A DNA stretch of 62,266 bases from an uncultured Alphaproteobacteria bacterium (lineage in GTDB: Bacteria > Pseudomonadota > Alphaproteobacteria > Micavibrionales > UBA9664): positions 1 through 62,266 of the forward strand of contig CAXGMH010000003.1 in assembly GCA_964010795.1 (NCBI GenBank), written 5' to 3'. Position numbers and translations under genes: made by a program. Numbering within the stretch: position 1 is the stretch's first letter; the number at the start of each line of letters is the position of its first letter. Of the stretch, positions 5,312 through 23,255 are shown one piece after another. The notes below the pieces were generated by a model. It made no database searches. It worked only from the letters and a program-made list of their open reading frames with translations, and was not told the DNA's origin.

Positions 5312-5350
5312 TAGGATTTTAATCCTATCCATGTTTAACGGTATTGTCAA
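5312..5350 (-). promoter_or_regulatory. sigma70-like promoter with overlapping 16-bp palindromic operator
   Basis: TTGACA (5350-5345), 17-bp spacer, TAGGAT (5327-5322); palindrome TAGGATTTTAATCCTA at 5312-5327. Confidence 0.65.
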
Positions 5351-5421
5351 TTTATTTTTGAACCATAGGCTGACAGTAGCGTAGGTATGCTAGGAAAAAG
5401 TTAAAAAAAATCTTGCAAATA

Positions 5422-5436
5422 TTAACAAAGTGTTAA
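5422..5436. promoter_or_regulatory. CtrA-type box
   Basis: TTAA-CAAAGTG-TTAA matches TTAA-N7-TTAA, intergenic. Confidence 0.5.
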
Positions 5437-5589
5437 TTTTTATTGCGGTGATTCGTTTTTTGTGCATATATGGTGCCTATGGATATTATTGGACATTACT
5501 ACGCACAACCTTTGATTTCTAAGAAAAACAGGGTTCGTAGCAAAGACAAAACAGAGAATACAAAGAACACATCCTGGGGTGAACAGGAT

Positions 5590-5805
5590 ATGGCCGATGA
5601 TGCTTTGTCTGCTATGGAGGCGCGTCTTAATGAAATCCGGATGCGTAAGCTGGCGGATCGTCGCAACACACCTGTTTTTCGTGCTAAACAAGCTGATATC
5701 AGCAGCTGGATCGGTACAGTCGCCACAGAGCAGGATAGAGGTTCACGTTCCGACCGCGCATTCCAGACCTATAGCCGTATGTCCAAATTGCCGCAAGGCG
5801 AATAG
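5590..5805 (+). CDS. Hypothetical protein
   Basis: ORF; likely start MADDAL at 5590 with AGGA upstream. Confidence 0.5.
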   Translation: MADDALSAMEARLNEIRMRKLADRRNTPVFRAKQADISSWIGTVATEQDRGSRSDRAFQTYSRMSKLPQGE

Positions 5806-5838
5806 ACCAGCAAATATTCAGGGTGTGGGAGCCTTATT

Positions 5839-6177
5839 TTGGTACAGTCAGACGATCCGACAATTTCGATTTTAGTCGCACAAAAAGAGACGGATAAAAA
5901 GAAAAGCCGTAAGCAGCAAGATGATGCAGCCCTTCATGCAGCACGACTTAATCGTTTGCTGAATCAGCAAAATGCACTGACTGTTTTGATGTGCCAATCC
6001 TCTTCTGTTGGTGGTGGAAAAAGCGCCTTTTCAGGTGATGAGATGCGCAGACCGCCTTTTGATGCAAAATATTTTCGCGAAATTCTGGCTGTGAATGGCA
6101 CATTACCAACACCAGAGTCTATGCTTCGGAGGCGCCGTATGAGCCAAGACGGCAACTCGCCTAAGGCCGCAGCATAA
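5839..6177 (+). CDS. Hypothetical protein
   Basis: 112-aa ORF filling the gap before a convergent gene. Confidence 0.5.
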   Translation: MVQSDDPTISILVAQKETDKKKSRKQQDDAALHAARLNRLLNQQNALTVLMCQSSSVGGGKSAFSGDEMRRPPFDAKYFREILAVNGTLPTPESMLRRRRMSQDGNSPKAAA

Positions 6178-6186
6178 TATAGATAC

Positions 6187-7905
6187 CTATTGTTTCCACC
6201 AGGTCTCAATAACAGGGCCGTAAACCGGTGTGTTTTCAGGTATTGCGATAGAGGGGCGCGTCGCAATAAGGTCTTTGCCGGCATAAAATAAAGGAATGAT
6301 GCGGTAATCTTCGAGGACTTTGCGGTCGAGTTTCCGGGCTGCATCAATTAACTCTGCGCGTGATACCGCGTTCACAAGCGCGTGAATGGCATCGTCTACT
6401 TCTTGGTCTTTTACGCGTGCATAGTTTCGTGTCCCGAATTGGTCTGCTGCGGCCGTGCCCCAATAGATAGCTTGTTCGTTCCCGGGAGAGAGTGAATTGA
6501 TCCAGCGGTAAAAGACCATGTCGTAATCAAATTCATTCAGGCGACCTAAAAATTGTGCAGAATCGACCGCACGTACTGAAGCGTCTATGCCAAGACGAGA
6601 AAGATTGCGCTTATAAGTCAGGGCAATTTTCTCGTCCTCTGGGTTGTTGAGCAGAATTTCAAAAGTAAAAATCTGACCGTCCTTTTGTAAAATACCGTCT
6701 TTGACGCGCCATCCTGCCTTTTGCAGCAATTGATTGGCCTGTCTCAATCTTGTGCGTTGTGGCTGGTTGAGCTGACTTTTTAAAAATGCGTTATCCGCAG
6801 CAAGCTCGGAATTGGGAAACAGGCTGGTGATTGGCTCATAAGCATCATGATACAGGTTCTTATTTACCCATTCATACGGGAAGGCCAGCCAGAGTGCTTG
6901 TCTCACACTCTTTTCCTCGAAGAGAGGTTTTGCGCCATTGGGGATGAGCGCTTTCAGCCATTCGGGACGGCCATGTTTAAAGGCGTTTTGAGAGATGTCT
7001 TTTGTGCTGTTATAACCTGTGATCCAGCGTGCGATATCTTGCTCGCGCCATATATCAATAGCGCCTGCCTTTAAGGCTTGAAAGGCAACAGTGTTGTCGC
7101 GAAAGTAGTCATAGACAAGGCGGTCGTAATTATAATGTCCTTTATTTACGGGTAAATCTGCGGCCCAGTAATCTTGAACGCGCTCATATGTAATCTGTCG
7201 TCCGGGATCTAGGCTTGATACCTTGTATGGGCCATTGCCCAAAGGTGGTTCTAGCGTTGTCGCGGCAAAATCTTTGTCGTGCCAGTACGACTTTGGCACG
7301 ATGCGCATGATGGATAGGATCATGGCTGTCTCGGCGTCATAGCCCTCGCCAAAAACAAAGCGAATGCGGCGGGGGCTTTGGATATCTACTTCTTTGACAA
7401 GGCCATAGACTTGGCGTGTAACAGGTTTGCCATGTGTTTTATGCATCTCAAAGCTGAAGGCGACATCTTCTGATGTGATCTGTGAGCCGTCGTGAAAGCG
7501 GGCATCGGGGTTGAGGGTATAGGTAATCTCTGAGCGATCGGGCGCAATCTCGACAGACTCGGCGATCAGGCCATAAAGGCCGAATGGCTCATCCCAGACA
7601 CGTCGCATAAGCGGATCATATAGATAGGTGAGGCCTGATGCCTTCACCCCTTTGATGTTGTATGGGTTGAGTGTGTCAAAGCTTCCACTGGCAGATTGCG
7701 TAAGCGTCCCGCCTTTTGGCGCATCCGGATTGGCATAATCCAAATGAAGGAAGTCTTCCTGATATTTGGGCTGCCCATGCATTGTGATGGCGTGTTGGGG
7801 CAGGCGCTTCGCGTCATTGTTACTGGCGCTAGAATTGGCGCAAAGGGCAATTGGCCATATGAGGCTAATGATAAGGGTAAGGCTTGCTAAAGCTTTGCGT
7901 ATCAT
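6187..7905 (-). CDS. yejA: ABC transporter substrate-binding protein, YejA-like
   Basis: HAITMHGQPKY, YANPDAPKGG, FDTLNPY, GNGPY motifs; start MIRKAL overlaps the upstream stop (ATGA). Confidence 0.85.
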   Translation of the reverse strand: MIRKALASLTLIISLIWPIALCANSSASNNDAKRLPQHAITMHGQPKYQEDFLHLDYANPDAPKGGTLTQSASGSFDTLNPYNIKGVKASGLTYLYDPLMRRVWDEPFGLYGLIAESVEIAPDRSEITYTLNPDARFHDGSQITSEDVAFSFEMHKTHGKPVTRQVYGLVKEVDIQSPRRIRFVFGEGYDAETAMILSIMRIVPKSYWHDKDFAATTLEPPLGNGPYKVSSLDPGRQITYERVQDYWAADLPVNKGHYNYDRLVYDYFRDNTVAFQALKAGAIDIWREQDIARWITGYNSTKDISQNAFKHGRPEWLKALIPNGAKPLFEEKSVRQALWLAFPYEWVNKNLYHDAYEPITSLFPNSELAADNAFLKSQLNQPQRTRLRQANQLLQKAGWRVKDGILQKDGQIFTFEILLNNPEDEKIALTYKRNLSRLGIDASVRAVDSAQFLGRLNEFDYDMVFYRWINSLSPGNEQAIYWGTAAADQFGTRNYARVKDQEVDDAIHALVNAVSRAELIDAARKLDRKVLEDYRIIPLFYAGKDLIATRPSIAIPENTPVYGPVIETWWKQ

Positions 7906-8912
7906 GCCAACAAGGCTGTGTAGCTTGTTTGTGGGCGCGGACCGAAATGCGAGATAACCTCGGCGGCGGCCTTGCATCCCAAAGCGCCGCATTCTTCGAG
8001 TGTCATGCCGCGGCTCAGGCCAAACAGGAATCCCGCGGCGAATTGGTCGCCGGCACCGGTTGTATCGATGATAGTGTCAACAGGATGAGCAGGCACATTA
8101 TAGCGTTTCCCGTGAGACAGGATAACCGCGCCTTTTTCAGAGCGTGTGATAACGACGATACGGCATTTTCCTTCGACTCTGGATATCGCCTCTTCCAGAG
8201 TTTGTGCCTGATAAAGGGATTTGATTTCGGCTTCGTTTGAAAAAAGGATATCAACATCACTAGATACCAGCTCTTCAAACTCTGCGCGGTGACGATCAAC
8301 GCAGAATGTGTCTGATAGTGTGAGTGCAACCTCAACGCCGTGTTTACGCGCGATCTCGGATGCTTTCTTATAAGCGGCCTTGGCCTTTGGTTTGTCGTAG
8401 AGATAGCCTTCGAGATAGAGAATGCGGCCCTGCGCGATGACTGTTTCATCAAGGTCCGTCTCTTCAAACTCTGTTGAGGCGCCGAGGAAGGTGTTCATCG
8501 AGCGTTCGGCATCAGGTGTGACAAAAATATGGCAGCTGGCTGTCGCTGGGCCGTCAATCAGTGGCTGGTTATTAAATGCGATTCCTTGTTCGTTCATGCC
8601 TTGATTAAACGCTTCGCCAAGGCTGTCTTTGGCGACCTTGCCGATGAAAGCGCCTTTGCCCCCGAAAGAACCAAATCCAGCCATTGTATTAGCAGCGGAT
8701 CCGCCTGAGCTTGTGACCGCGTTATTCATCTTTGAAAACAGCTCTGCAGCGCGGGCTTCGTCGATGAGCGTCATTGCGCCTTTTTCAATGTTCTCAGCTT
8801 TTAAGAAATCGTCATTGGCATGAGCCAGAATATCCACGATTGCATTACCAACGGCTACGACATCGTATGCCTTGGTAAGTTCTTGCTGTTTTTTATCTTG
8901 TGAAGAAGGCAT
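7902..8912 (-). CDS. PfkB-family sugar/adenosine kinase
   Basis: GNAIVD, GGSAANT, DTTGAGDQFAAGF. Confidence 0.9.
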   Translation of the reverse strand: MPSSQDKKQQELTKAYDVVAVGNAIVDILAHANDDFLKAENIEKGAMTLIDEARAAELFSKMNNAVTSSGGSAANTMAGFGSFGGKGAFIGKVAKDSLGEAFNQGMNEQGIAFNNQPLIDGPATASCHIFVTPDAERSMNTFLGASTEFEETDLDETVIAQGRILYLEGYLYDKPKAKAAYKKASEIARKHGVEVALTLSDTFCVDRHRAEFEELVSSDVDILFSNEAEIKSLYQAQTLEEAISRVEGKCRIVVITRSEKGAVILSHGKRYNVPAHPVDTIIDTTGAGDQFAAGFLFGLSRGMTLEECGALGCKAAAEVISHFGPRPQTSYTALLA

Positions 8913-8983
8913 TGCACGCGCTCTCTTTCTTTTCTATCAATATAGTCTAAGTTTTATGAATAGATACATTTAAATGAGGTCTC

Positions 8984-9568
8984 GTGATGACGCAAGTCGA
9001 TAAGCCGAAAAAAGCACATCCATCCGATTGGATTATACAAGCAGCCTTTGATGCGGCGAAAACGATGCCTTGGGCTCAGTTGACATTAAGTGATATTGCC
9101 GAGGCTGCTGGACGGTCAATGGTAGAGCTGCGCGATGTCGTGGACGATAAGACGGATATCCTTGTTCTTTATGGCCGTAAACTGGATCGCAATGTTTTGC
9201 AAAACTGCGCAAAGCCTGATTATAGTGAAAGTGAGAAAGACCGTTTATTCGAGGTTTTGATGGAACGTTTCGATATTCTCAATCAAGACCGTGAGGCGGT
9301 ATTGTCCATTCTCGATAGCCTAAAATCTGATCCAAAGGCGTTGGTGATTTCGTTCCCGCACCTTAAGCACTCAATGGCATGGATGATGGAGGCGGCGGGG
9401 GTGTCGTCTTCGGGGTGGCGCGGTCTGGCGAAGCTGGCGCTACTGACGGGGCTTTACCTCAATGTCGTCAGGCACTGGAAAAATGATGACAGTCCCGATC
9501 TGGCCAAAACGATGGCCGGTCTCGACAGGGCGCTTGAGCGCTTCACAAAATGCGGGAATGTGATTTAG
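8984..9568 (+). CDS. TetR-like regulator
   Basis: N-terminal HTH (LTLSDIAEAAG), DRLFEVLMERFD, DDSPDLAKTMAGLD. Confidence 0.75.
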   Translation: MMTQVDKPKKAHPSDWIIQAAFDAAKTMPWAQLTLSDIAEAAGRSMVELRDVVDDKTDILVLYGRKLDRNVLQNCAKPDYSESEKDRLFEVLMERFDILNQDREAVLSILDSLKSDPKALVISFPHLKHSMAWMMEAAGVSSSGWRGLAKLALLTGLYLNVVRHWKNDDSPDLAKTMAGLDRALERFTKCGNVI

Positions 9569-9580
9569 TGAGTATAAAGC

Positions 9581-9919
9581 TTAGGCTGCTTCGTTAAAGG
9601 CAACGCCTTTATCTTTAAGAAGGGTTTGCAGCTCGCCTGTCTCATACATTTCGCGGATAATGTCGCAACCTCCGACAAACTCTCCTTTGACAAAAAGTTG
9701 AGGAATTGTCGGCCAGTTATTAAAGTCTTTGATGCCTTGGCGAATATCGTTATCAGCCAGAACATCAATAGAGTGGAACTCGACACCAAGCACAGACAGG
9801 ATCTGTACGACAGCTGCTGAGAAGCCGCATTGAGGAAACACGGCTGTGCCTTTCATGTATAAAGTCACATCATTGTTGTTGATATCTTGTTTGATGCGGT
9901 CAAAAACGACGTTTTGCAT
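9581..9919 (-). CDS. grxD: Monothiol glutaredoxin
   Basis: PQCGFS, WPTIPQ, GGCD. Confidence 0.95.
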   Translation of the reverse strand: MQNVVFDRIKQDINNNDVTLYMKGTAVFPQCGFSAAVVQILSVLGVEFHSIDVLADNDIRQGIKDFNNWPTIPQLFVKGEFVGGCDIIREMYETGELQTLLKDKGVAFNEAA

Positions 9920-9984
9920 AGGCCACCCTTTCTAATTATATTTCTTGTTATTCTTATTCAATTCTCAATTATTATAGCAATGTA

Positions 9985-10218
9985 TCATTCAGGTGCTTTG
10001 GTATGCAACATTAAAGCATGGAGTTCTCCACCCATCTTATCACCCAAAGCGCGGTACACCATTTGGTGCTGTTGTACGCGAGGTTTTCCTGTGAAAGAAG
10101 GAGAGGTAACATAGGCAGCATAGTGATCGCCGTCACCGCGTAAATCCTCTATTCGGACATCCGCATCGGGCAATCCTTGCTTAATCAGGTTTTCGATTTC
10201 ATTAGCATTCATAGGCAT
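9985..10218 (-). CDS. bolA: BolA family protein
   Basis: GDGDHY, RVQQHQMVY, LHAL; adjacent to grxD. Confidence 0.9.
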   Translation of the reverse strand: MPMNANEIENLIKQGLPDADVRIEDLRGDGDHYAAYVTSPSFTGKPRVQQHQMVYRALGDKMGGELHALMLHTKAPE

Positions 10219-10338
10219 ATTAATAGAGGTAACGCGTTCGCACTTAAAAATCCAGTGTGATTTTTGTTGACATAATTAAATATTATGTGTATTTTTATTA
10301 TGCGATTTGATTCAAAGGGTTTTAAAAAGGTGTGAAAT

Positions 10339-10536
10339 ATGAGTTCTAATAAGATTACGGCAAAAACAGATTTTGATAATGCTCGTTCAGGATCGGGGAT
10401 GAGGGCTATATCCCAATTTTTATCTAATTTGACTGTGGGGGTAGTGCCTGCAGAGGTTGTGCAAGGCGCGCTGGGCAGGCTACGAATGTCGGGGACTGCT
10501 AATCCGGCTAGAAAGAATGCTTTTTCTAAGTTTTAG
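10339..10536 (+). CDS. Small hypothetical protein
   Basis: 65-aa ORF after TTGACA (10267) and AAGGTG RBS. Confidence 0.5.
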   Translation: MSSNKITAKTDFDNARSGSGMRAISQFLSNLTVGVVPAEVVQGALGRLRMSGTANPARKNAFSKF

Positions 10537-12740
10537 AGCATTAGCTCTTTAAGCCAGTTTTCATTTAAAGATTTGAGGGTCGCAATGGCAATGCTGTAGC
10601 GGCCTATCTTTATATCCGTGCCACGTGTTTTTCCAAGGATAATGCCTTCGATCTGATCCGGTGTTGTGGTCGTAACGATGTAGCGCGATTGATCTTCTCC
10701 GTAAAGGCGGGCGGCATCAGTTTCGATATCTAAGTCAGCCCCGATATTGCTTGAGATTGCCATTTCCGCAATTGCGACCAAAATACCGCCATCCGAGATA
10801 TCATGGCAAGCTGTGATTTTGCCCTCGTCAATTAAAGAGCGGATATAAAGCCCGGTTTCCTTTTCCGCCTCCAGATCAATATGCGGAGCGGGGCCGATCT
10901 CTGCTCCATGGATTTCACGTAGATATAGGGATTGGCCGAGATGTCCAGCTCCCTCCGGGCCGACCAGCATGATGGTTTCTTCTTCGCCTTGGAAGGCAAG
11001 GGGGCAGGCCTTTGACCAGTCAGCAATCATACCTACTCCGCCGATCACGGGGGTGGGATTGATCGCGCGCCCAGCTGTCTCGTTATAAAGCGAGACATTG
11101 CCCGAGACTACAGGGTAGTCGAGTTCGCGGCAGGCCTGAGCCATTCCTTCGATGCAACCTACAAACTGGCCCATAATTTCAGGCCGTTCGGGTGAGCCAA
11201 AATTGAGGTTGTTGGTCACCGCCAAGGGGGTCGCACCTGTAGCACAAAGATTGCGGTAGCTTTCGGCGACGGCTTGCTTGCCGCCCTCATAAGGGTCGGC
11301 CTTGCAGTATCTGGGCGTGCAATCAGAGCTTGTTGCAAGTGCCTTCTCGGACTCTGGAATGCGAACGATCGCGGCATCTGACTGGCCTGAGGTGAAGACG
11401 GTTTCACCGCGCACCAGTCTGTCATATTGCTCCCAAATCCAGCTTTTATTCGCAAGGTGTGGGCTGGACATGAGAGTTCTGAGCGCCTCAAACGGATCGC
11501 CACTCGGGAGAGGATAATCACTTGGATTGATATTGGATTGTGGCTGTGTCTTTGTGTGCGGGCGGTCATATTTCGGTGCATCATCCACCAAAGGCGGGAC
11601 GGGGATATCGCACCAGCGCTTACCGTACATATCAAGGGTCAGACGTTTACTGTCATTGGTCTGGCCGATGACAGCAAAATCGAGATCCCATTTCTCAAAA
11701 ATGGCACGGGCTGTGTCCTCTGCGCCGGGTTTTAAGATCATGAGCATACGCTCCTGACTTTCGGAGAGCATGATCTCATAGGGAAGCATATGGTTTTCGC
11801 GTTGGGGTACGTGATCGAGGTCAAGCGCAACGCCGATGCCACCCTTATCGGCGATCTCAACAGAAGAAGACGTCAGGCCGGCCGCGCCCATATCCTGAAT
11901 AGCGACAATGGCATCTTCTTGCATCAATTCAAGACAGGCCTCGAGCAGGAGTTTTTCGGTGAAGGGGTCGCCGACTTGAACTGTCGGGCGGTTGTCGGCC
12001 TCTTCCTCGCCGAATTCAGCTGAGGCCATGGTCGCACCATGGATGCCGTCGCGTCCTGTTTTTGAGCCAACATAAACAACGGGTTGTCCGGGCTGCGCGC
12101 CGCGGGAATAAAATATCTTGTCCTGATCGGCAAGGCCGATACACATTGCATTAACGAGAATATTCCCGTTATAGCTCTCATGAAATTCCGTCTCACCTGC
12201 GACAGTCGGCACGCCCATGCAATTGCCGTAATGGGAAATGCCGCTGACCACACCGGAGAGGAGGTGTTTTGTCTTCGGGTGATCGGCTGCGCCAAAGCGC
12301 AGAGCGTTCAAATTGGCAATAGGGCGTGCGCCCATTGTAAAGACATCACGCATAATCCCGCCCACACCTGTGGCCGCACCTTGGAAGGGTTCAATGAAAG
12401 ATGGATGGTTATGGCTTTCCATCTTAAAAATTAGCGCCTGATTGTCGCCGATATCGATAACGCCTGCATTCTCCCCCGGGCCTTGGATCACCCAAGGCGC
12501 TTGTGTAGGCAGTTTAGCCAGATGAATGCGTGAGGATTTATAAGAGCAATGCTCCGACCACATCACAGAAAAAATTCCAAGCTCGGTGTAACTCGGCTGG
12601 CGGCCGAGAATGTCGTGAATGTGGTCGAATTCACTTTGGCTTAAGCCGTATTCCGCAGCCAATTCGGCGGAAATTTCAGGTTCTTTGAGTGTGTTAATAA
12701 AATTTTGTGTATTGTGATCGAGAGCTGCTTTCATGCTCAT
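10533..12740 (-). CDS. purL: FGAM synthase large subunit
   Basis: MWSEHCSYKS, ESHNHPS, GAATGVGG, QDMGAAG, SGNVSLYN, HDISDGG. Confidence 0.97.
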   Translation of the reverse strand: MSMKAALDHNTQNFINTLKEPEISAELAAEYGLSQSEFDHIHDILGRQPSYTELGIFSVMWSEHCSYKSSRIHLAKLPTQAPWVIQGPGENAGVIDIGDNQALIFKMESHNHPSFIEPFQGAATGVGGIMRDVFTMGARPIANLNALRFGAADHPKTKHLLSGVVSGISHYGNCMGVPTVAGETEFHESYNGNILVNAMCIGLADQDKIFYSRGAQPGQPVVYVGSKTGRDGIHGATMASAEFGEEEADNRPTVQVGDPFTEKLLLEACLELMQEDAIVAIQDMGAAGLTSSSVEIADKGGIGVALDLDHVPQRENHMLPYEIMLSESQERMLMILKPGAEDTARAIFEKWDLDFAVIGQTNDSKRLTLDMYGKRWCDIPVPPLVDDAPKYDRPHTKTQPQSNINPSDYPLPSGDPFEALRTLMSSPHLANKSWIWEQYDRLVRGETVFTSGQSDAAIVRIPESEKALATSSDCTPRYCKADPYEGGKQAVAESYRNLCATGATPLAVTNNLNFGSPERPEIMGQFVGCIEGMAQACRELDYPVVSGNVSLYNETAGRAINPTPVIGGVGMIADWSKACPLAFQGEEETIMLVGPEGAGHLGQSLYLREIHGAEIGPAPHIDLEAEKETGLYIRSLIDEGKITACHDISDGGILVAIAEMAISSNIGADLDIETDAARLYGEDQSRYIVTTTTPDQIEGIILGKTRGTDIKIGRYSIAIATLKSLNENWLKELML

Positions 12741-12871
12741 TGTTTTAAAGAAAATATGAATGTAGCACAAGCGCAAACACGTCATGAGGTGGGAGAAGAC
12801 CATCTAGAAGATTATTTTATTGACATAATAAATTTAACTGTGATAGGGTGGACAAAATTAAGGAGAAAAAG

Positions 12872-13156: not shown

Positions 13157-13157
13157 G

Positions 13158-13361
13158 CTATTGGCAAAATCCGACGGGCAGGCCGTCGACCTCGGCGGTC
13201 AGGCAAAAGCTTGGGCCTGTGCCGTCAAAAACAGTTTTCTGGATATCGGCCTCAGTTGCTGTCACCTCATCAAGAAGTTTTTCGTATTCAGCCAGTTCGC
13301 GAATAAAATTCAGGATTGTCTGGCTATCGTCTTTGGTGGCTACTCTGTAATTGATCTCCAT
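13158..13361 (-). pseudogene. Truncated GNAT acetyltransferase (spermidine/diamine acetyltransferase-like)
   Basis: IRELAEYEK...AEVDGLPVGF then a stop at 67 aa; acetyl-CoA motif A absent. Confidence 0.7.
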
Positions 13362-15237: not shown

Positions 15238-16286
15238 ACCTTTTTAAACGAGGCTCTAATAAGTGGGAAGAGCGCGCGCAAAAAGTTCATGAAAACGGCA
15301 AACGTCTCGCCGGTTTTTATCATGAGAACTATCTGTACAGGTCCAAAGATAACGAGAAATTTCTCTTTCGTTTTCCGATAAAGGGCGCGCCTAATATGGA
15401 TCCGCATTTATTTAAAGAGGCGGATGTTTTACCTTTTGTAGAAAAGCACGGCTTGTCTGCGCCAAAGCTGTTATATCGGGCAAAGGACGATAGCTTTATC
15501 GTGGAAGAGTTTGTCGAGGGAATTTTGGTGGAAACCTCACATCCGGTGGGGCAAGATATGCCTGCCCATGTCTTGGATCAGATTGTCGAATTTTATGCTC
15601 AGACAGCGACGATGACGGACTTTCAGGAGCTGTTTGATAAAAGGCTTGTCAAGGACTGGCCCTCATCCGGTCCTATGGGTGATTTCTTTAAGGCAATTTC
15701 CGATGTATCTCGGGGTGTTTATCAGCAAAATAAAATGCTGAGGGGCAAAGAGCTTGATTATATCGGCATTCCTGAGACGCCGTATCTTCAGATGCAAGAG
15801 ATGGCAAGCTCTCTTTCCAATCGTCCTTGGGTGTTTATTCATTCGGATATGCACCGCGCCAATATGATCGTTGATGGGGATGCTAGGCTTCGTCCGATTG
15901 ACTGGGAGCAGGCTTTGGTCGGAGATTTGGTGTATTGTTTCGCAGTGCATTTGCATATTTCCAGGCATGACGAGCAAATCAAAGCCGATCTGATTAGGCG
16001 TGTTAAAAAAGCGTTACCGAAAAAGTTTCTCGTTGGTTTTGATAAAGACCTTGAGTTCTACCTGACTTATGAAGCTTTGAAATCAATCATCACCGACACA
16101 GTGCGTTTCCCGCAGGCTCTGCGTGAAGAGATGTTCTCGCCCAAGAAAGAGGCTGAGCTTTGTTTATATTATAGTGATAACCTTAAAAAGATTGCGCCAT
16201 TATTCGGCAACAAAACTCCTGATGCCGGAGAAGTTCTCAGGCTTTTCCAGCAATGGGGGGGAAACGCTTTGATTTTATTTGCATAA
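15225..16286 (+). CDS. APH/choline-kinase-fold phosphotransferase
   Basis: HSDMHRAN catalytic loop and IDWE motif. Confidence 0.75.
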   Translation: MFGLNLFKRGSNKWEERAQKVHENGKRLAGFYHENYLYRSKDNEKFLFRFPIKGAPNMDPHLFKEADVLPFVEKHGLSAPKLLYRAKDDSFIVEEFVEGILVETSHPVGQDMPAHVLDQIVEFYAQTATMTDFQELFDKRLVKDWPSSGPMGDFFKAISDVSRGVYQQNKMLRGKELDYIGIPETPYLQMQEMASSLSNRPWVFIHSDMHRANMIVDGDARLRPIDWEQALVGDLVYCFAVHLHISRHDEQIKADLIRRVKKALPKKFLVGFDKDLEFYLTYEALKSIITDTVRFPQALREEMFSPKKEAELCLYYSDNLKKIAPLFGNKTPDAGEVLRLFQQWGGNALILFA

Positions 16287-16330
16287 CGCTATCTTTTCGT
16301 GTTTTATACCCAACAAAGAAGAGGTGATTT

Positions 16331-16558
16331 ATGTTCGAAGAATTTAACGGCTGGATGGATATTAAGCGTAAAGGGAAGTCAAAAGGGAAGCAGATTTTAG
16401 TGGCAGAATTTACCTTAAGTTCGGGAGAGATCAAGCGTTATGGCTCCAATGCGTTGGATAACCTTCTTAAATGCCCACCTCAAAATTTCACTAATGCAGA
16501 CCGCGAATTGGTTGATTTTGCCCAAAGGAGCAAAACCGGAGTGACTCTTAGTCGGTAA
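16331..16558 (+). CDS. Small hypothetical protein
   Basis: GAGGTG RBS directly upstream of a 75-aa ORF. Confidence 0.55.
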   Translation: MFEEFNGWMDIKRKGKSKGKQILVAEFTLSSGEIKRYGSNALDNLLKCPPQNFTNADRELVDFAQRSKTGVTLSR

Positions 16559-17330
16559 ATTGTTCTTTTAAGATGCGCTCTTCCAGAGAATGTCCCGGAT
16601 CAAATAAGAGGGCGCGTTCTTTGGATTTATTCAACGATATTTCAACGCTTTTGACATCTCGTATTTCTGTGTAATCCGCTACAGCCGAAACAGGTCGCTT
16701 TTCCGCTTCGAGGATGTCAAAACGAATATGCGCATCAGAGGGTAGGAGGGCGCCGCGCCAACGTCTCGGGCGAAACGCGCTGATCGGGGTGAGCGCCAGA
16801 ACATCAGATCGTAAAGGAATAATCGGACCGTGTGCTGAGAGGTTATAGGCTGTTGATCCGGCAGGGGTGGAGACTAGAGCTCCGTCACAGATCAATTCTT
16901 CCATTCGCACAACGTTATCGACAGCAATCTGAAGCTTTGCGGCTTGTCGTGATTCCCGCAGCATAGAAACTTCGTTATAAGCGCGAGCTGTATGTTTTTC
17001 GCCCATCGTGGTCTCAACAACCATTTCCAGTGGGAAAAGAGAGACCTTGCGTGCTTTGTCCAGTCGTTCGGGCAGGTCATGCCCATCACGAGGATTAAGA
17101 AGAAATCCGACAGAGCCATAGTTGACACCATAAAAGGGGATGTCTAGAGCTTCGTATTTATGCAAGGATTCAAGCAGGAATCCATCTCCGCCCATCACAA
17201 TGACGGCATCAGCGTCCTCAGGCTTGTGCTCACCGAAACGATTTTTGAGCGCAATCACATCATGGAATGCTTGCTCATCATCTGCGGCAAGGAAGCTCAG
17301 TTTTTCGAAGTTGTGTGAAGATTGTCCCAT
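16548..17330 (-). CDS. nadK: NAD kinase
   Basis: GGDG, G-GFL, NE, DGxxxSTPAGSTAYNLSAHGP. Confidence 0.95.
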   Translation of the reverse strand: MGQSSHNFEKLSFLAADDEQAFHDVIALKNRFGEHKPEDADAVIVMGGDGFLLESLHKYEALDIPFYGVNYGSVGFLLNPRDGHDLPERLDKARKVSLFPLEMVVETTMGEKHTARAYNEVSMLRESRQAAKLQIAVDNVVRMEELICDGALVSTPAGSTAYNLSAHGPIIPLRSDVLALTPISAFRPRRWRGALLPSDAHIRFDILEAEKRPVSAVADYTEIRDVKSVEISLNKSKERALLFDPGHSLEERILKEQFTD

Positions 17331-17337
17331 AAAAATG

Positions 17338-18042
17338 TTACGAGGCTGATTGTTCTTCGGATTTACCGCCATGGTCGATCGACCACTGAACCGGATTTTT
17401 CAAAAAGCTCTCGACGGCCTCCAATGTTTGCGGCTCGAAATAGGATAGAGATGAGGCAACATCCAGAACGTTCCACCATGTCGTCAAAGCGTGAAGCTTT
17501 ACCCCCATCTCGGCCATGTTCTTCTCGCTTTGTTCGAAAATACCGTAATGAAATAAGACAAAAGAATGTTCTACTATTGCGCCCGCTTTGCGCATGGCAT
17601 CAATAAATACTTTTTTTGATCCGCCATCGGTCTGAAGGTCTTCGATCAGGACAACATTTTGGCCTTCCTCGAAATGTCCTTCGATCTGTGCCATGCGGCC
17701 AAAGCCTTTTGGCTTCTTACGCACGTAAAGCATAGGGAGGTCAAGGCGGTCTGATAGAAGTGCCGCGTAGGGAATACCGGCAGTTTCACCGCCTGCAAGT
17801 GCGTCCATCGTCTCATATCCAATATTGCGGCAAAGGGTTGCTGCGGCGAAATCCATGAGTGCGGCTCTGGCGCGCGGGAAGGAAATAAGACGGCGGCAGT
17901 CAATATACACAGGGCCGACGCGACCTGATGTATATGTGAACGGTTCTTCTGCGTTAAAGAGGATGGATTTTGTTTCTAGTAAAATCTTGGCTGTCTCAAC
18001 GGAAATTGCGCCCTGATCGAGAAATGAGGTTTGTAAGGCCAT
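17338..18042 (-). CDS. pyrE: Orotate phosphoribosyltransferase
   Basis: SGRVGPVYIDCR, YVRKKPKGFG, VLIEDLQTDGGS. Confidence 0.92.
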   Translation of the reverse strand: MALQTSFLDQGAISVETAKILLETKSILFNAEEPFTYTSGRVGPVYIDCRRLISFPRARAALMDFAAATLCRNIGYETMDALAGGETAGIPYAALLSDRLDLPMLYVRKKPKGFGRMAQIEGHFEEGQNVVLIEDLQTDGGSKKVFIDAMRKAGAIVEHSFVLFHYGIFEQSEKNMAEMGVKLHALTTWWNVLDVASSLSYFEPQTLEAVESFLKNPVQWSIDHGGKSEEQSAS

Positions 18043-18123
18043 GTAAGAACTCTCCTATGGGATCTGGTTTACCCTTTATCGAAAAACCCATTGCATGAGT
18101 CAAGGGATAAAGGGGGAAGGCAG

Positions 18124-18798
18124 TTATTGTGTGACCCAGACAATGCGGGCAATAAGGCAATCGGGTCCGGGGTGAAGTAATTCCTGTTTATCAGTCTCAT
18201 GCGGAAGGCAAGATGTAACGAGTACGTGTTGTCCGTCACGCCTTATAACCTGACGAATAGAGCTTGCGCGTCCTTCTCTCGTGGGGCGGTTGACAATGAT
18301 ACGGTCGCCGGGCTGATAGGTTGCTTTGGGCGAAATGATGAGGCGGTCGCCGCTGCGATAGATTGGCTCCAGAACATCGGAGTCCATTTCAATCGCAAAC
18401 AAATGCGGGTCGCCAATGTCGCGTGCTGAATGGAAGACCATCCGCGTCCAATTTTGATCTGGCTGGGGGCGGCCGTTATCTTTGAACCAGTTCGGTTCGA
18501 TTCTCTTGCGGATTAAGCTGAGGCTGATTACGGGGATATCGGTTCTGGCCTGCGTGGCCTCGACGTCCTCTTCGTTATTGAGAGAGAGTAAATCAACCAG
18601 CGTCATGTTTGTGACAGCAAGAATTTTGGCGATACTTTCGGTTGAGGGCCAGCGCGGTTTGCCATCAGGGCTTAAACGTTTGCTTTTGTTAAAAGCGGTG
18701 GGGTCGAGGCCGGCTTGTTTAGCAAGGCCGGATGTTGAATACCCGCATTTACGTGCGAGCGAGTCTATGGCTGTCCATATTTCCTCATGTGTGAACAT
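18124..18798 (-). CDS. HTH + degenerate S24-peptidase repressor (alphaproteobacterial COG2932 type, possibly RogA-like)
   Basis: THEEIWTAIDSLA...SGLAKQAGLDPTAFNKSKR...RWPSTESIAKIL; C-terminal YRSGDRLII...IARIVW; start 18798 or 18810. Confidence 0.8.
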   Translation of the reverse strand: MFTHEEIWTAIDSLARKCGYSTSGLAKQAGLDPTAFNKSKRLSPDGKPRWPSTESIAKILAVTNMTLVDLLSLNNEEDVEATQARTDIPVISLSLIRKRIEPNWFKDNGRPQPDQNWTRMVFHSARDIGDPHLFAIEMDSDVLEPIYRSGDRLIISPKATYQPGDRIIVNRPTREGRASSIRQVIRRDGQHVLVTSCLPHETDKQELLHPGPDCLIARIVWVTQ

Positions 18799-18828
18799 TA
18801 AACTGCTCATCCTTCCCGTTTTTTGTTC

Positions 18829-18969
18829 TGAGATTATATTCCCACGATTCATCTGAAACTGCAAATAAAAGGGTTACAGAGGGATCAACTAATAAATAGG
18901 AATATAGTCTTAAAAAAGGGCTTGACAATGAGAACAAAATAGAACATTATGTAGAACATAAACAGAACA
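18829..18969. promoter_or_regulatory. Divergent control region: two palindromic operators, sigma70 promoter, LexA-type box
   Basis: TGAGATTATATTCCCA 18829-18844; TAGGAATATAGTCTTA 18897-18912; TTGACA 18922-18927 with CATTAT 18945-18950; four AGAACA units including GAAC-N7-GAAC at 18954-18968. Confidence 0.65.
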
Positions 18970-19010
18970 AAACCGTTTAAACCATAATTAAAGACATGAA
19001 AGGACGCGCA

Positions 19011-19520
19011 ATGTCAGAGCGGCATCACGGCCCCTATGAAGACGACCATATCGGCGAAGCTTTTGAAACTGTTGAGGCTTTGTGGTTTTGGTTTATGGCT
19101 GCCAATGAGGCGATGCGTTCCGGGGCACGATATTCTGCTGGCCGCGGAGATAAAGTGCGTCCATGTGAGCCGGTTGACGTGATCCGCATAGTGGAGCGTC
19201 TTTATCGGTCCCGTATGCTTAAGATCGACCATTTGCGTGTGATGAGGCATTACGGATTACGCAAAAGCGCACCGGATCCGTATGTCGCTCGTGAGGCAAG
19301 AGCCGCAAAAATCTGGGATGAGGCAATGGATAAGCTTTACCCCGTATTGCTCCGTAAAAAATTGGTGGAGCCGCGCCCGTCAACACTTGCAGAATGGCCT
19401 CAGGCACTCAAAGAACAGGCGCTGGCTCGGGCAGAGGAAATCGGGCGCTGGGCAAAGTCGGGCACACAAAGCAATCAAGATAATTTTTCGCTAAAATCAA
19501 TTGAAGGAGGATTAGCATGA
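19011..19520 (+). CDS. Hypothetical protein, first gene of the phage-like operon
   Basis: AAAGGA RBS; WFWF and RPCEP motifs; helical C-terminus. Confidence 0.75.
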   Translation: MSERHHGPYEDDHIGEAFETVEALWFWFMAANEAMRSGARYSAGRGDKVRPCEPVDVIRIVERLYRSRMLKIDHLRVMRHYGLRKSAPDPYVAREARAAKIWDEAMDKLYPVLLRKKLVEPRPSTLAEWPQALKEQALARAEEIGRWAKSGTQSNQDNFSLKSIEGGLA

Positions 19521-20041
19521 CACAGGAAAATGTGAACCAAAATAATACAGAGTTAAAAGCATGGGTTGTTTTTCGTGACAAAACCGAACTTGGCATTTTA
19601 AAGCCGCTCAAACGAGGTTTTCGCCACTGCTTTGTGATTTTAAATGATGGCAAGCGCTGGATTTCGGTGGACCCGCTGTCCAATCATATGGATGTGCTTG
19701 TTCATGACCTTGATCCTGATTTTGATTTGCCGGGCTGGATGGCTGAGCGTGATTGCACGGTATTAGCCGCGCCGATCGCACGTGATAAAATGTGTATGGC
19801 ACCGATCTTGCCGTTCAGCTGTGTCGAGGCCGTTAAACGGGTTTTGGGTATTCATGCATGGCATATCCTGACCCCTTATCAACTCTATTCTTACCTGCAG
19901 CGGCGCCAGTTTGTATTCGCTGCACCTTCAACTACACAAAAATTAAAGGAGATATTTTATGGGTGGCGTTATATCCGCAGCATCAAAAATTCCGTCCGTC
20001 AGGACAGCGCAAACGCATATCAACACGGCGCGTATAGCTGA
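19517..20041 (+). CDS. Phage-associated hypothetical protein with His/Cys motifs
   Basis: GGAGG RBS, overlaps upstream stop; FRHCFV, SCVEAVKRVLGI, TPYQLY. Confidence 0.75.
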   Translation: MTQENVNQNNTELKAWVVFRDKTELGILKPLKRGFRHCFVILNDGKRWISVDPLSNHMDVLVHDLDPDFDLPGWMAERDCTVLAAPIARDKMCMAPILPFSCVEAVKRVLGIHAWHILTPYQLYSYLQRRQFVFAAPSTTQKLKEIFYGWRYIRSIKNSVRQDSANAYQHGAYS

Positions 20042-20243
20042 TCCGGCAACTACATCAGCTGAAACACAAGACGAAGATAATGAAGTGGTGGGTCAGGGCA
20101 ATAACGCACAGGACAATGATGAGCGCAATCTTTTGACATTCACGCCAAGGCGCGGGCGCAGCTCTACTATTCGTACGTCTTTGCGCGGATTACTTGAACG
20201 CTCAGACGCCATACCACAAAGAAAATCTCTTTTAGGAGAATAA
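19959..20243 (+). CDS. Small pre-portal virion protein
   Basis: AAGGAG RBS; MGG start and RKSLLG end resemble small genes preceding podoviral portals. Confidence 0.65.
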   Translation: MGGVISAASKIPSVRTAQTHINTARIADPATTSAETQDEDNEVVGQGNNAQDNDERNLLTFTPRRGRSSTIRTSLRGLLERSDAIPQRKSLLGE

Positions 20244-20247
20244 TTCC

Positions 20248-21774
20248 ATGACAGTAAAAACTCTTATCGCACCCGCCTCATCCGAGGACGGGGCGATGAT
20301 CCATGCCTTGCATAAAGCGCAACAACAGGCGCGCAGCAAACGCGACCGATGGGTGGGCTTGTGGCAGGAATGCTATGATTACGCCTTGCCGCAACGTGAT
20401 AGCTTTTATGGGTTTGACCATGCCGGACAAAAGCGCAGTGACCATCTTTATGACGGCACGGCAATGGATAGTGTCGATCAGCTAGCCGCAAGTCTTTTGG
20501 CTGAACTGACACCGCCTTGGAGCCAATGGTTCGGTTTCAAGCCCGGCTTTGCGCTCAGTAAAGATGAAGCGGAAACGATTGCACCTAAGTTGGAGAATAC
20601 TGCACAAATCATGCAAACACATTTTGACCGATCGAATTTTGCAACCGAGATACATCAATGTTTTCTTGATCTTGTTACCGCAGGGACGGCCTGTCTGTAT
20701 TTTGATCGTGCCGCTACGGGCGCTATGACGGCTTTTCGTTTTGAGGCAGTGCCTCTTTCACAAGTGGCGATAGAGCAAAGCGAGAATGGCAGCATGGATA
20801 TCACTTATCGATACCGCAAGATCAGTGCCGGCCAGATTCAAAATGATTTTGTGCAGGCGGAATTGCCGCAAGAACTGGTCGCTAAAGCTCTTAAATCCCC
20901 GGATACAGTATTCGAGGTGATTGAAGTTGTGCAGCCGGAGGGGCTGGCTTACCGCAAAATATGTTACTTGCCACAGTTTGTCGATAAGGGCGGTGAGGCT
21001 GCAATATTGTGCTCGCAATTGTTGCAATCAAGTCCCTATATTCATTTTCGCTGGCAGAAAAGCCCGGGTGAGATTTATGGACGTTCTCCGGTGATGAAGG
21101 CTTTGCCGGATATTAAAACAGCGAATAAAGTTGTTGAGCTTGTTTTGAAAAACGCATCGATTTCGGTGACGGGAATTTGGCAGGCCGATGATGATGGTAT
21201 CTTAAATCCTGCCAACATTGACCTGAGGCCCGGAACAATTATTCCAAAGGCAGTCGGGTCGCAAGGGCTGACACCATTGGAAATGCCTGCGCGTTTTGAT
21301 GTGTCCGAGCTTGTTTTGTCGGATTTACGGGCGCGTATCCGCAAAAGCCTTATGGTGGATCGCCTTGCTCAAATCGAAGAGCGGCAAATGACAGCGACAG
21401 AAGTTTTAGAGCGTGCTCGTGAGATTGTGCGGCTTCTGGGCGCAACATATGGGCGTTTGCAATCCGAGCTCTTAACCCCGCTTATCAGGCGCGGATATGA
21501 TTTGTTGCGCGCCAGAGGGGAGATTGCCGATCTTGCGCTTGACGGTCGTTATGTTGCGCTTGATTATCGTTCACCCATGGCGCGTGCGCAACAGCAATTA
21601 TCGGTTCAAAATACATTGAACTGGCTGAGGTCTGCGACCGAGCTTGGCGCAAAAGCCAGTGAGGCGATAGATGTGCCCGAGGCCGTCCGGCATATGGGTG
21701 AAGCCTTGGGTGTGCCGTCACATCTGATCCGCCGCGAGCTTCTTGATAAAGGAGGCGAGAATGCAACGTCCTAA
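20248..21774 (+). CDS. Portal / head-to-tail connector (T7 gp8-like)
   Basis: YDGTA, LAASL..LTPP, RWQKSPGEIYGRSP, ALPDIK, MTATEV, GRLQSE. Confidence 0.92.
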   Translation: MTVKTLIAPASSEDGAMIHALHKAQQQARSKRDRWVGLWQECYDYALPQRDSFYGFDHAGQKRSDHLYDGTAMDSVDQLAASLLAELTPPWSQWFGFKPGFALSKDEAETIAPKLENTAQIMQTHFDRSNFATEIHQCFLDLVTAGTACLYFDRAATGAMTAFRFEAVPLSQVAIEQSENGSMDITYRYRKISAGQIQNDFVQAELPQELVAKALKSPDTVFEVIEVVQPEGLAYRKICYLPQFVDKGGEAAILCSQLLQSSPYIHFRWQKSPGEIYGRSPVMKALPDIKTANKVVELVLKNASISVTGIWQADDDGILNPANIDLRPGTIIPKAVGSQGLTPLEMPARFDVSELVLSDLRARIRKSLMVDRLAQIEERQMTATEVLERAREIVRLLGATYGRLQSELLTPLIRRGYDLLRARGEIADLALDGRYVALDYRSPMARAQQQLSVQNTLNWLRSATELGAKASEAIDVPEAVRHMGEALGVPSHLIRRELLDKGGENATS

Positions 21775-22012
21775 GTTTTTTGATTTTTTGACGCAGATAC
21801 CATTCGGCCAAAAGCCAGCAGAGATAGAGCGATGTTTTGCCAAAGTTTTTCTGTCTACGGATGGGCGACAGGTTTTGCGCTATTTGCATCAAACCATAAC
21901 AGCCAGAGCTTTGCCTGCTGATTGTTCGACGGAAATGCTGCGCCATCAAGAAGGACAACGTGCTTTGCTTCAAATGATATTGCGCATGACTGAACGTGGT
22001 AGCGCAGAGTAA
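21761..22012 (+). CDS. Small post-portal protein (Bbp19-like)
   Basis: FLSTDGRQVL...LRHQEGQR; AAGGAGG RBS. Confidence 0.7.
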   Translation: MQRPKFFDFLTQIPFGQKPAEIERCFAKVFLSTDGRQVLRYLHQTITARALPADCSTEMLRHQEGQRALLQMILRMTERGSAE

Positions 22013-22051
22013 TACTTTAAACCTCATCTAAACAAAAGGAGATACCCCCTC

Positions 22052-22744
22052 ATGAGAGATGAAACCTTATCCAATGAAACTCAAAGTCAGGAACAGATGC
22101 TCAAAGTGCCTGAGAAATTTATTGATCCTGAAAGTGGTGAAATTCGCCTTGACGCACTGGTGAAATCCTATCGGGCATTAGAGACGAAGCTTTCACAAGC
22201 GCCGAGTGCTTCGGCAAAGCCAGAAACGGCGGAAGAATATAAGGCCAAAGTCAATCCCGGTTTGCTTGAGTTTGATGATGAGCTCAATGCTAAGCTTTTT
22301 GAGCGAGAGTTCACTGCTGAACAAGTGCAAACAATTTATGATCTGGCTGGCGAATACCTCATCCCGATGTTTGCGAAGATGCGCGCCGAGTTTGAGGCTG
22401 ATCGTGATCTGGAGCGCCTTATCGAGCATTTCGGCGGGGCTGAGAAATGGCAAGAAGTTTCTCGTCAATTATTCAATTTTGGACAAAAGACATTGCCGCA
22501 ATCCGTTTTTGAAAATCTGGCTAGCTCGTATGACGGTGTCATGGCGCTTTATAAAATGATGGGGCAAGAGGGTACGCAAAATGTATCTCCACAAATGGCG
22601 GAGCCGACGACGGAAAATGATTCTCAAGGGCTTCAGTCTATGATGCGTGACCCTAAATACTGGAAGGAACGCGATCCGGCCTTTATTGCCAAAGTCACAC
22701 GTGGTTTTGAACGTCTTTATGGAGACAGTGCGAAGGCGGAGTAG
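22052..22744 (+). CDS. Capsid scaffolding/assembly protein
   Basis: VPEKF, KSYRALE, acidic helical body, C-terminal DPKYW..DPAF..KV; position between portal and capsid. Confidence 0.8.
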   Translation: MRDETLSNETQSQEQMLKVPEKFIDPESGEIRLDALVKSYRALETKLSQAPSASAKPETAEEYKAKVNPGLLEFDDELNAKLFEREFTAEQVQTIYDLAGEYLIPMFAKMRAEFEADRDLERLIEHFGGAEKWQEVSRQLFNFGQKTLPQSVFENLASSYDGVMALYKMMGQEGTQNVSPQMAEPTTENDSQGLQSMMRDPKYWKERDPAFIAKVTRGFERLYGDSAKAE

Positions 22745-22773
22745 GGGTGAAAACTCTTACTTATCGGATTTGT

Positions 22774-23151
22774 TTAGCCGAATTGTTGGTTGGTGGCGTC
22801 TGTGACGACATCGCGAAAGGCTGTTTCAGCCTCTCCGGGAAGTGCGTCAAATTGTAGGGCAATACGTGATTTTGTTGTGCGCAAAATCTTGGCAGAGTGG
22901 GACACATCAAGAACACGGTTGCTGAGGCGGAACTTGATTGTGAAATCAACGGCTTCACCGGTTTGGAATTGTCGGCCTTGTGCTTCGATCTGGGCGCCAC
23001 CCATTGACCAGTCAACAACCGGATATTGTGTTCCATCAACGACAATGACGCAGGTGTCCTGAGATCGACGCTCACTTTGGCGGCGTGCAGATGGACCGTC
23101 ATCATTCGATACGGTTTTCATGAATTGATCCCAAGATTTTTTGAAGTGCAT
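22774..23151 (-). CDS. Single-domain PilZ protein
   Basis: RRQSERR (RxxxR) and DWSMGG (DxSxxG) motifs; GAGGA RBS. Confidence 0.85.
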   Translation of the reverse strand: MHFKKSWDQFMKTVSNDDGPSARRQSERRSQDTCVIVVDGTQYPVVDWSMGGAQIEAQGRQFQTGEAVDFTIKFRLSNRVLDVSHSAKILRTTKSRIALQFDALPGEAETAFRDVVTDATNQQFG

Positions 23152-23225
23152 TTCAGTCCTCGCTCAATTGAATATGGTAACTGTACTAAATTTTTCGAAA
23201 AATCACAAATTTAATAATTATTTTC

Positions 23226-23255
23226 TTGACAATATAGGATTTTATTCCCAATAAT
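23226..23255 (+). promoter_or_regulatory. Capsid promoter with operator in the spacer
   Basis: TTGACA 23226-23231; TAGGATTTTATTCCCA 23235-23250; AATAAT 23250-23255. Confidence 0.65.

Follow-up and report, generated by a model that had tools for sequence, protein, structure and literature searches.

The window analysed here, positions 1-62,266 of contig CAXGMH010000003.1 (62,266 nt; GenBank assembly GCA_964010795.1) from an uncultured alphaproteobacterium of the order Micavibrionales, carries a gene for a phage-type repressor next to a cluster of T7-like particle genes, and a 16-bp palindrome occurs in it four times. From the placement of the palindrome and its recurrence in related genomes, we consider it likely that it is the operator of this repressor, a helix-turn-helix (HTH) protein with an S24-like domain encoded at positions 18124-18810, and that the pair gates an inherited T7-like cluster.

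The repressor gene lies on the minus strand. Its product combines a Cro/cI-type HTH with a degenerate S24 domain (Peptidase_S24, 7.4e-5, just under the cut-off; HTH_26, 0.018; phrog_4, a transcriptional repressor family, 1.3e-8), and the repressors of relatives begin at the codon that is Met5 here (18798). The plus strand carries orfA (18996-19520), orfB (19517-20041), the small frame orfC and genes for a T7-type portal (20248-21774; Head-tail_con, 7.1e-130) and a T7-type scaffold, or capsid assembly, protein (22052-22744; 3.8e-11). A PilZ-domain gene (22774-23151, minus strand) sits between scaffold and capsid, where it is kept in most relatives, and its presence inside the cluster hints at an input from cyclic di-GMP (c-di-GMP). 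The next plus-strand gene is an in-frame capsid-terminase fusion of 510 codons (23437-24969) that joins capsid residues 1-157 (4e-44) to the C-terminal ~350 residues of a T7-type large terminase (termin_lrg_T7, 3.7e-74). An endolysin (cell-wall hydrolase) and a holin of the GTA (gene transfer agent) type with three transmembrane segments are encoded at 25174-26186 on the same strand, as assigned with Pfam, NCBIfam and PHROGs. The flanks of the cluster are housekeeping genes, phosphoribosyltransferase and NAD kinase on one side and nhaA and icd on the other.

Promoters were placed with a consensus promoter scan, and the four 16-mers reported by a first-pass annotation of this DNA were each located where it had put them. 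TAGGATTTTAATCCTA (5312-5327) covers the -10 element and start region of a minus-strand, sigma-70-like promoter, TTGACA-17-TAGGAT (5322-5350; 10 of 12 consensus matches), that belongs to a gene for a 92-amino-acid (92-aa) protein. The proximal operator, TGAGATTATATTCCCA (18829-18844), lies in the 5' leader of the repressor gene, 18 bases before its first ATG, and the distal operator, TAGGAATATAGTCTTA (18897-18912), lies over the -10 element of the repressor promoter (TTGTCA-16-TATATT; 18901-18928, minus strand). Back to back with the -35 hexamer of this promoter stands that of the predicted early promoter for orfA, orfB, orfC, portal and scaffold (TTGACA-17-CATTAT; 18922-18950, plus strand), whose CTTGAC is kept at the same place in relatives. 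The fourth copy, TAGGATTTTATTCCCA (23235-23250), fills the spacer of the late, or capsid, promoter, TTGACA-18-AATAAT (23226-23255, plus strand; 11 of 12 consensus matches). This promoter stands ~200 bases upstream of the capsid gene. It is followed in the leader by an intrinsic terminator, an 11-pair hairpin with a T-run (23264-23290, plus strand), ~150 bases before the capsid start codon at 23437. The places that the annotation had named for the copies, in the order given here (satellite gene, repressor leader, operon promoter and capsid promoter spacer), all fit, with the reservation that the site at 18897 overlaps the repressor -10 and stays outside the operon promoter, 9 bases upstream of its -35. 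An Rfam search of window positions 1-30000 and six extra loci returned no known leader or small-RNA family, one tRNA excepted.

To rank these sites we used a symmetric scoring matrix of 16 columns, refined only on the repressor-orfA spacers of 18 relatives with the window excluded. The consensus of the palindrome is TAGGAWWWWWWTCCTA, and its best-kept half-site is TTCCTA. Over the whole assembly that holds the window (1,953,751 bases), the matrix ranks the four window sites 1st, 2nd, 3rd and 8th. The site at 5312 is the best of the genome with 22.3 bits, followed by those at 18897 (21.1 bits), 23235 (20.7 bits) and, in eighth place, 18829 (17.2 bits). The ranks between are held by sites of ~20 bits each on other contigs, namely C24:13678, C47:16359, C27:4243 and C12:6201 (contig and position). 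These eight matches of at least 17 bits compare with 2, 0 and 0 in three third-order Markov genomes. In intergenic DNA (~181 kb, crudely defined, 42% GC) there are six such matches, compared with 0.1 on average and never more than 1 when the same DNA was simulated 40 times by a second-order Markov model. The full motif is therefore no commonplace of AT-rich spacers, the outcome that the first-pass annotation had named as fatal to its own proposal. The core that it had read, GGAW-N4-WTCC, is present in all four sites but matches the genome 135 times and is uninformative alone, whereas the full 16-base motif is informative. Nor does a regulon of four copies, as first proposed, describe the genome, in which no fewer than eight strong copies occur, including additional ones before dnaK and clpB.

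We next considered how the sites are distributed in relatives, using ~19 kb around the repressor gene in 19 genomes and a 3.5-kb contig end from a twentieth, queried with the window proteins. A repressor homologue is found in 27 of the 41 genomes of the same order, the present genome included, and in this comparison the gene is always accompanied by two or more operators. The repressor-orfA spacer has at least two sites of 13 bits or more in 17 of 18 relatives, these spacers being the training set of the matrix. The two sites are mostly exactly 36 bp apart in relatives and 59-68 bases apart in the window's own family, and in most relatives the proximal operator overlaps the repressor start codon (TCCTATG). 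The capsid-promoter site was not in the training set; 14 of 16 relatives have it, with 17.5-22 bits, among the 300 bases that precede their capsid gene. Thirteen relatives share the layout TTGACA/TTGACT-N3-operator, in which the last TA of the operator opens the -10 hexamer, and a leader hairpin with a T-run starts 5-25 bases past the operator in 10 of the 14 operator-bearing relatives as well as in the window. Operators thus recur beside the repressor and on the capsid promoter in many relatives when orthologous upstream regions are examined, as had been proposed for a check.

Beyond these genomes, we inspected the best 80 of more than 563 public loci of the repressor family from other species; records of Micavibrio aeruginosavorus (L090 and L101) are among the loci with this arrangement. 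A site of at least 15 bits is present in 62 of these 80 loci, nearly always within ~150 bases upstream of the repressor start, and orfA adjoins the repressor in 65 of them. For members from the Hyphomicrobiales and Rhodospirillales the full palindrome falls below the threshold. The half-site ATTCCTA is nevertheless found no more than 260 bases upstream of the repressor gene in seven of nine such loci, and TTCCTA in an eighth (L128), a retention that parallels the near-invariant HTH region of the repressor. In one relative (L031, genome G018) the identical distal-operator 16-mer stands twice in the repressor-orfA spacer, at 1258 and 1796, 538 bases apart, which suggests a local duplication. Separately, the stretch from the leader terminator to the capsid start (window 23290-23436) repeats words of the form GA(C/T/G)AAC(C/G) (e.g. 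ggacaacc, gataacgg, gcgacaacc), as it also does in many relatives.

The early promoter carries a second regulatory sequence. Four GAAC repeats (18932-18968, plus strand) include a canonical alphaproteobacterial LexA-type box, GAACATAAACAGAAC, at 18954-18968, which starts 3 bases after the early -10. The alphaproteobacterial SOS box has the form GTTC-N7-GTTC or GAAC-N7-GAAC, and the lexA promoter of this same genome carries GAACTTATGTAGAAC. The box at the early promoter matches that of the genome's own lexA promoter, and the early operon is most likely under the control of the host LexA. As in other alphaproteobacterial SOS boxes, its two words are repeated in direct orientation with a 7-base spacing, and they cover the -10/+1 stretch of the promoter, as at lexA; unlike ordinary ones, it is embedded in four GAAC repeats and paired with a second, unrelated repressor system. 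Of 19 spacers, 13 have a GTTC-N7-GTTC box between repressor and orfA, as do 55 of 65 public loci; it lies ~40 bases from the -35 and shortly past the -10, and Rhodovibrio and a Rhodospirillaceae genome have it too.

Two other assignments of the palindrome deserve weighing against the repressor, and the first involves orfA, a 174-aa helical protein that is a candidate late-gene regulator. Its family comprises 1494 proteins, and the best 120 of these have no Pfam domain and, where named, are all 'hypothetical'. Neither orfA nor orfB has a Pfam or NCBIfam family or a PDB sequence match, and Foldseek returned nothing for them at E <=0.001. The orfA model (mean predicted local distance difference test score, pLDDT, 81) was also compared with 48,161 chains by an exhaustive aligner. 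The top rows were Q21 (6jnx_P, Q-engaged complex; Z 6.1, root-mean-square deviation 4.1, 90 aligned) and AlpA (7xyb_G; Z 5.4, root-mean-square deviation 3.5, 82 aligned), and numerous sigma region 4 domains came next. In phage lambda the Q-binding element lies between the -35 and -10 of the late promoter, before a terminator, and in the window the capsid-promoter site fills the spacer with a terminator next to it. The palindrome could on these grounds be the loading site of orfA, acting as a Q/AlpA-like antiterminator or a Cro-like factor, and not of the S24 repressor.

We regard this assignment as improbable. Two genomes, G034 and G005 (both 99% complete), have no orfA homologue, yet they keep sites of 17.7-22 bits beside the repressor gene, and G034 also keeps one at a capsid remnant, which argues that the binder is not orfA. 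The half-site is likewise retained upstream of Hyphomicrobiales repressor genes that have no orfA within 4 kb. A pair of copies lying over the promoter and the start codon of the repressor gene itself is a classic arrangement for autoregulation, and the Z values of orfA lie in a range where helical proteins may match by chance. With the repressor as the binder, orfA could still act as an antiterminator; its weak likeness to Q21 and AlpA agrees with a late promoter that runs straight into a terminator. The other early protein, orfB (174 aa), is predicted to have a papain-like, TseH/YiiX-like fold with invariant His37, Cys38 and Cys102; its model (mean pLDDT 80) best matches TseH (Z 7.0), YiiX (Z 6.2) and a cysteine peptidase (Z 5.4), all of them papain-like hydrolases. 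The frame orfC (19959-20243) overlaps the 3' end of orfB in another frame and is conserved in relatives only over its last ~30 residues, directly upstream of the portal gene.

The second assignment is raised by sites on other contigs. Upstream of dnaK, C47:16359 shares two bases with the -35 of a TTGACA-17-TATTAT promoter, and C27:4243 overlaps to the same extent the -35 (TTTACA) upstream of clpB. A two-base overlap with a -35 (TTGACT) is seen again at C24:13678, where a 112-codon frame comes after a short, terminator-bearing leader. At C12:6201 the site occupies the spacer of TTGACA-17-TAATAT, and after it come a leader terminator and a 220-codon frame with a tail-fibre match (phrog_28473, 1.5e-6). 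A further site, C8:36532 (16.8 bits), overlaps the -10 upstream of hsp20. Strong sites before dnaK, clpB and hsp20, the first two conserved over two families, could belong to an unrelated host stress or chaperone regulator that also binds the phage-derived cluster, with the S24 protein recognizing something else.

The distribution of the chaperone sites leaves this host regulator little credence. A dnaK site of at least 14 bits is present in 8 of 18 repressor-bearing relatives, all of families f1 and f5, and a clpB site of at least 16 bits in 9 of 20 (two of three in f1 and all seven in f5), counts that represent lineages of kin genomes and not independent events. Among genomes without the repressor the corresponding counts are 0 of 12 and 0 of 10. 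In families f6, f3 and f4 the repressor and the operators of the cluster are present and the chaperone genes lack sites, so that the cluster sites form the older, core set. In addition, sites are found at the promoter of each repressor gene that was examined in the order, and no other candidate regulator was identified. If the palindrome is the operator of the repressor, the conserved dnaK and clpB operators suggest that the supply of chaperones is tied to the same switch. The chaperone genes had also prompted a reading of TTCCTATTT as a sigma-32 -10 element. This was dropped, as the motif is a two-armed palindrome and fills sigma-70 spacers at non-chaperone promoters, and as dnaK of family f5 has a separate TTGAC-N17-CCTAnAT promoter downstream of the motif. 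As for contig 12, the region at ~6194-7001 (L052:3343-4005) is a likely-looking accessory particle locus away from the main cluster, and its 220-aa tail-fibre-like product has no homologue in 40 relatives.

That the copies are chance likenesses among AT-rich promoter spacers and -10-like sequences is a very remote prospect, already contradicted by the controls: in its favour are the many genomic matches to the loose core, the use of the final motif bases as the start of a -10 hexamer and a search with copy 1 at <=3 mismatches whose three matches were reached in 3 of 100 shuffles, and against it stand the excesses over simulated genomes (8 versus 0-2) and simulated intergenic DNA (6 versus 0.1) and the positions conserved in relatives at sites outside the training set.

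The repressor itself belongs to a family with 4522 members at E <=1e-5, typically of 213-217 aa and carrying PF00717, whose HTH region is almost invariant. We aligned the window repressor with 21 homologues and with the LexA from its own genome. The window protein has SLIR in place of the AQAG cleavage motif and MDSDV at the Ser motif, so that Val is aligned with the Ser of the others, and its residue at the Lys position is Arg. Most members of the family keep AQAG, GDSM and the Lys, and look able to self-cleave. A metagenomic relative of 88% identity has SLIR and Arg too, its Ser motif having been checked only in the first three residues (MDS), and two Micavibrio-type repressors are degenerate in other ways. 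Because most other members keep all three features (Ala-Gly, Ser and Lys), we count the dead S24 domain as a trait of this lineage and not of the family. The genome has a third S24 gene beside those of LexA and the repressor, which lies on contig 4 (L056:1348-1881) and encodes a UmuD-like protein of 177 aa with GDSM and Lys intact.

This architecture resembles that of RogA (CCNA_00080) from Caulobacter crescentus, which is described in the available text of Gozzi et al. (2022; PMC9632790) as a 213-aa protein with an HTH and an S24-like domain that lacks key catalytic residues. The same text places two inverted repeats, GGAA-N4-TTCC, in the gafYZ core promoter, so that RogA had been described correctly in the first-pass annotation as an HTH/S24 protein with such repeats. 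The window repressor shares the N-terminal HTH and the C-terminal LexA/cI-like S24 domain with its autocleavage residues gone, and its predicted sites have GGA(W)-N4-(W)TCC cores in core promoters, compared with GGAA-N4-TTCC for RogA. The Hyphomicrobiales and Rhodospirillales are among the orders named for RogA homologues in that text, and both contain the repressor family among the best 80 of more than 563 public loci; these 80 include no Caulobacter record. The comparison with RogA yielded no PDB sequence match, an Atlas search returned generic S24 clusters only, and no wording on RogA binding or on an operator was found in PMC13236601.

The particle genes that this repressor would control keep their place. 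Across several families the order at one chromosomal site is phosphoribosyltransferase, repressor, orfA, orfB, orfC, portal, scaffold, PilZ and capsid onward, and in relatives it continues past the capsid with 7-9 kb of further genes, terminase, hydrolase, holin, nhaA and icd. In an intact relative these further genes include a full-length capsid protein of 277 residues, two tail proteins (phrog_394 and the nozzle-like phrog_376), a tailspike that resembles pectate lyase, and small frames of unknown kind. There was no sign of an integrase, a polymerase or a replication gene. These observations are consistent with a cluster that is vertically inherited. The RcGTA-type markers PF05065 and PF13547 have no match in the genome, which is 100% complete by marker genes, and both match in a Caulobacter control.

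In the window itself the T7-like module (portal, scaffold, capsid and terminase, in T7 order) is recognized but incomplete. The terminase part of the fusion matches positions 128-500 of a 500-position model, without the ~127 N-terminal positions, and the fusion is the scar of a ~7-8 kb deletion. The genes between capsid and terminase are missing from the whole assembly, where contig 29 alone has a related gene, a partial paralogue of the tailspike. Support for the deletion from reads is limited to assembled contigs. The junction (23896-23911) is bridged without differences by one public 962-base contig from run X1, which may be the sample of origin, and a pair of contigs assembled from run X2 abut precisely there, so that intact and deleted forms of the cluster could coexist in that population. 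The window locus cannot make a particle, and with the capsid-terminase deletion the switch therefore no longer controls a buildable particle here. Other patterns of decay are seen in genomes G012, G034, G028, G005 and G003. The paralogue on contig 29 (17095-18645) corresponds to the C-terminal ~500 residues of the relatives' tailspike with 39-43% identity and has no strong operator nearby.

Several points weigh against the repressor as the binder and gatekeeper. Its sites are assigned to it by adjacency and co-occurrence, and the compared genomes are kin and not independent. The matrix was seeded by a consensus like that of the earlier annotation and refined on the spacers, so that counts within the spacers are partly circular, and a strict palindrome pattern, which we do not count as support, is only modestly above a reversed control in three of five relatives (3 versus 2, 5 versus 4 and 8 versus 7). 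The distal operator lies outside the core of the early promoter, upstream of its -35, so repression of the early operon by the S24 protein is not evident. The dnaK, clpB and C24 sites abut the -35 and are centred near -41.5, where activation of the cI type fits as well as repression. The Z values of orfA, 6.1 and 5.4, are below the reliable level of the aligner, and the RogA-type label is drawn from architecture and motif.

Taking these points together with the evidence above, we infer that the best-supported reading of the locus is a two-stage switch with two repressors, in which LexA acts on the early promoter, the RogA-like protein acts on its own and the late promoter, and terminator read-through completes the second stage. 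A repressor dimer would bind the distal and proximal operators and limit its own synthesis, and the repressor would also occupy the late promoter and block RNA polymerase. LexA would independently shut the early operon (orfA, orfB, portal and scaffold). DNA damage would remove LexA and, in most relatives, where Ala-Gly, Ser and Lys are intact, probably the repressor too. An early product, for which orfA is the candidate, would let polymerase pass the leader terminator, so that the genes for capsid, tail, terminase and lysis are transcribed. In the window lineage the S24 domain is dead, with Val for Ser, Arg for Lys and the Ala-Gly pair gone, and release of the repressor would have to follow another route. 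The other conserved targets in this genome are a small membrane protein gene, dnaK and clpB, to which two operator-plus-terminator units (C24 and C12) are added, and the circuit may persist owing to its other conserved targets.

Such a switch would be like RogA/gafYZ, as far as that system is set out in the available text of PMC9632790 and PMC11150451, in several respects. A chromosomal HTH and S24-like repressor lacks catalytic residues; a core promoter contains inverted repeats whose GGAA...TTCC core has four bases at its centre; and a vertically inherited, phage-derived particle system would be silenced, with late expression that needs terminator read-through. The arrangement is unlike that of Caulobacter in that the particle genes are of the T7/podovirus type and not of the HK97/RcGTA type, and in that operators lie on the repressor's own and the capsid promoters, in contrast to the activator-gene promoter there. 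The early promoter is also covered by a LexA-type box, and the late promoter has a consensus -35, whereas the -35 of PgtaT in Caulobacter is degenerate and needs GafY. Unlike RogA, most repressors of the present family retain the Ala-Gly, the Ser and the Lys. Neither early protein is recognizably related to GafY/GafZ in Pfam, NCBIfam, homologue and fold searches, although a relation too distant to detect is possible; GafZ itself resembles no known antiterminator, according to the available text of Tran et al. (2024; PMC11150451). The earlier proposal of a RogA-type switch on a podoviral particle holds for the architecture, the dead S24 domain, the operators on a T7-like capsid promoter and the lack of RcGTA markers, and fails in that the cluster is broken here, the wiring is not that of Caulobacter and the regulators are not recognizable as GafY/GafZ. 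The observation of the operators is confirmed, and the interpretation is partly supported, being right in kind once it is corrected for the different wiring and for a cluster that is a remnant, and once orthology to RogA is taken as no more than putative.

Phage lambda offers a second comparison, with cI at OR/PRM and Q at PR'-tR'. Like cI, the window repressor is an HTH and S24 protein, apparently autoregulated through operators over its own promoter and divergent from an early promoter. Like the Q-dependent promoter, the late promoter is strong and has a terminator close behind, a combination that implies an antiterminator from the early operon. Unlike lambda, there are no integrase, replication or immunity-region genes here, the host LexA itself would gate the early promoter with the repressor also on the late promoter, and the element occupies one chromosomal site across families.

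A broader proposal can be put forward only tentatively. Micavibrio-like and Rhodospirillales bacteria may harbour a third kind of alphaproteobacterial GTA-like element, with a podovirus-type particle locked by LexA (early) and a RogA-like protein (late) and released through a Q-like antiterminator, and in two families the RogA-like protein may have been co-opted onto the dnaK and clpB promoters, with a host role that outlives the particle genes here. If true, this host role would explain both a catalytically dead repressor and operators kept beside a broken cluster. So far RogA has been characterized in a single organism and for a single kind of GTA. A repressor and operator of its type are now seen on a structurally unrelated, apparently vertically inherited T7-like cluster, and the features added relative to the RogA system are the LexA box, the terminator in the leader of the late promoter and a pair of uncharacterized early proteins. 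The operators, promoters and terminator described here provide a testable regulatory map of what may be a new class of domesticated phage particle, one that would occur in Rhodospirillales and in predatory bacteria of the Micavibrio type. In a literature search that did not cover subscription journals, we found no paper on a podovirus-type GTA, on a RogA-type operator outside Caulobacter, or on a tie between chaperone supply and such a switch for gene transfer agents.

The 92-aa protein gene at the genome's best site (4986-5264, minus strand) is a family-specific member of the predicted regulon. Its product has a hydrophobic N-terminal stretch and a coiled coil, as read from the sequence, and a weak match to phrog_736. 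Homologues are confined to this genome and two other f1 genomes (0 of 38 other genomes searched), and both have a site of 21.7-22.4 bits at the -10/+1 of a similar promoter. Between this gene and a 111-codon frame (5470-5805), a perfect TTAA-N7-TTAA box, TTAACAAAGTGTTAA, which we take to be of the CtrA type, occupies positions 5422-5436, and a box of this form is found at the matching place in both same-family genomes.

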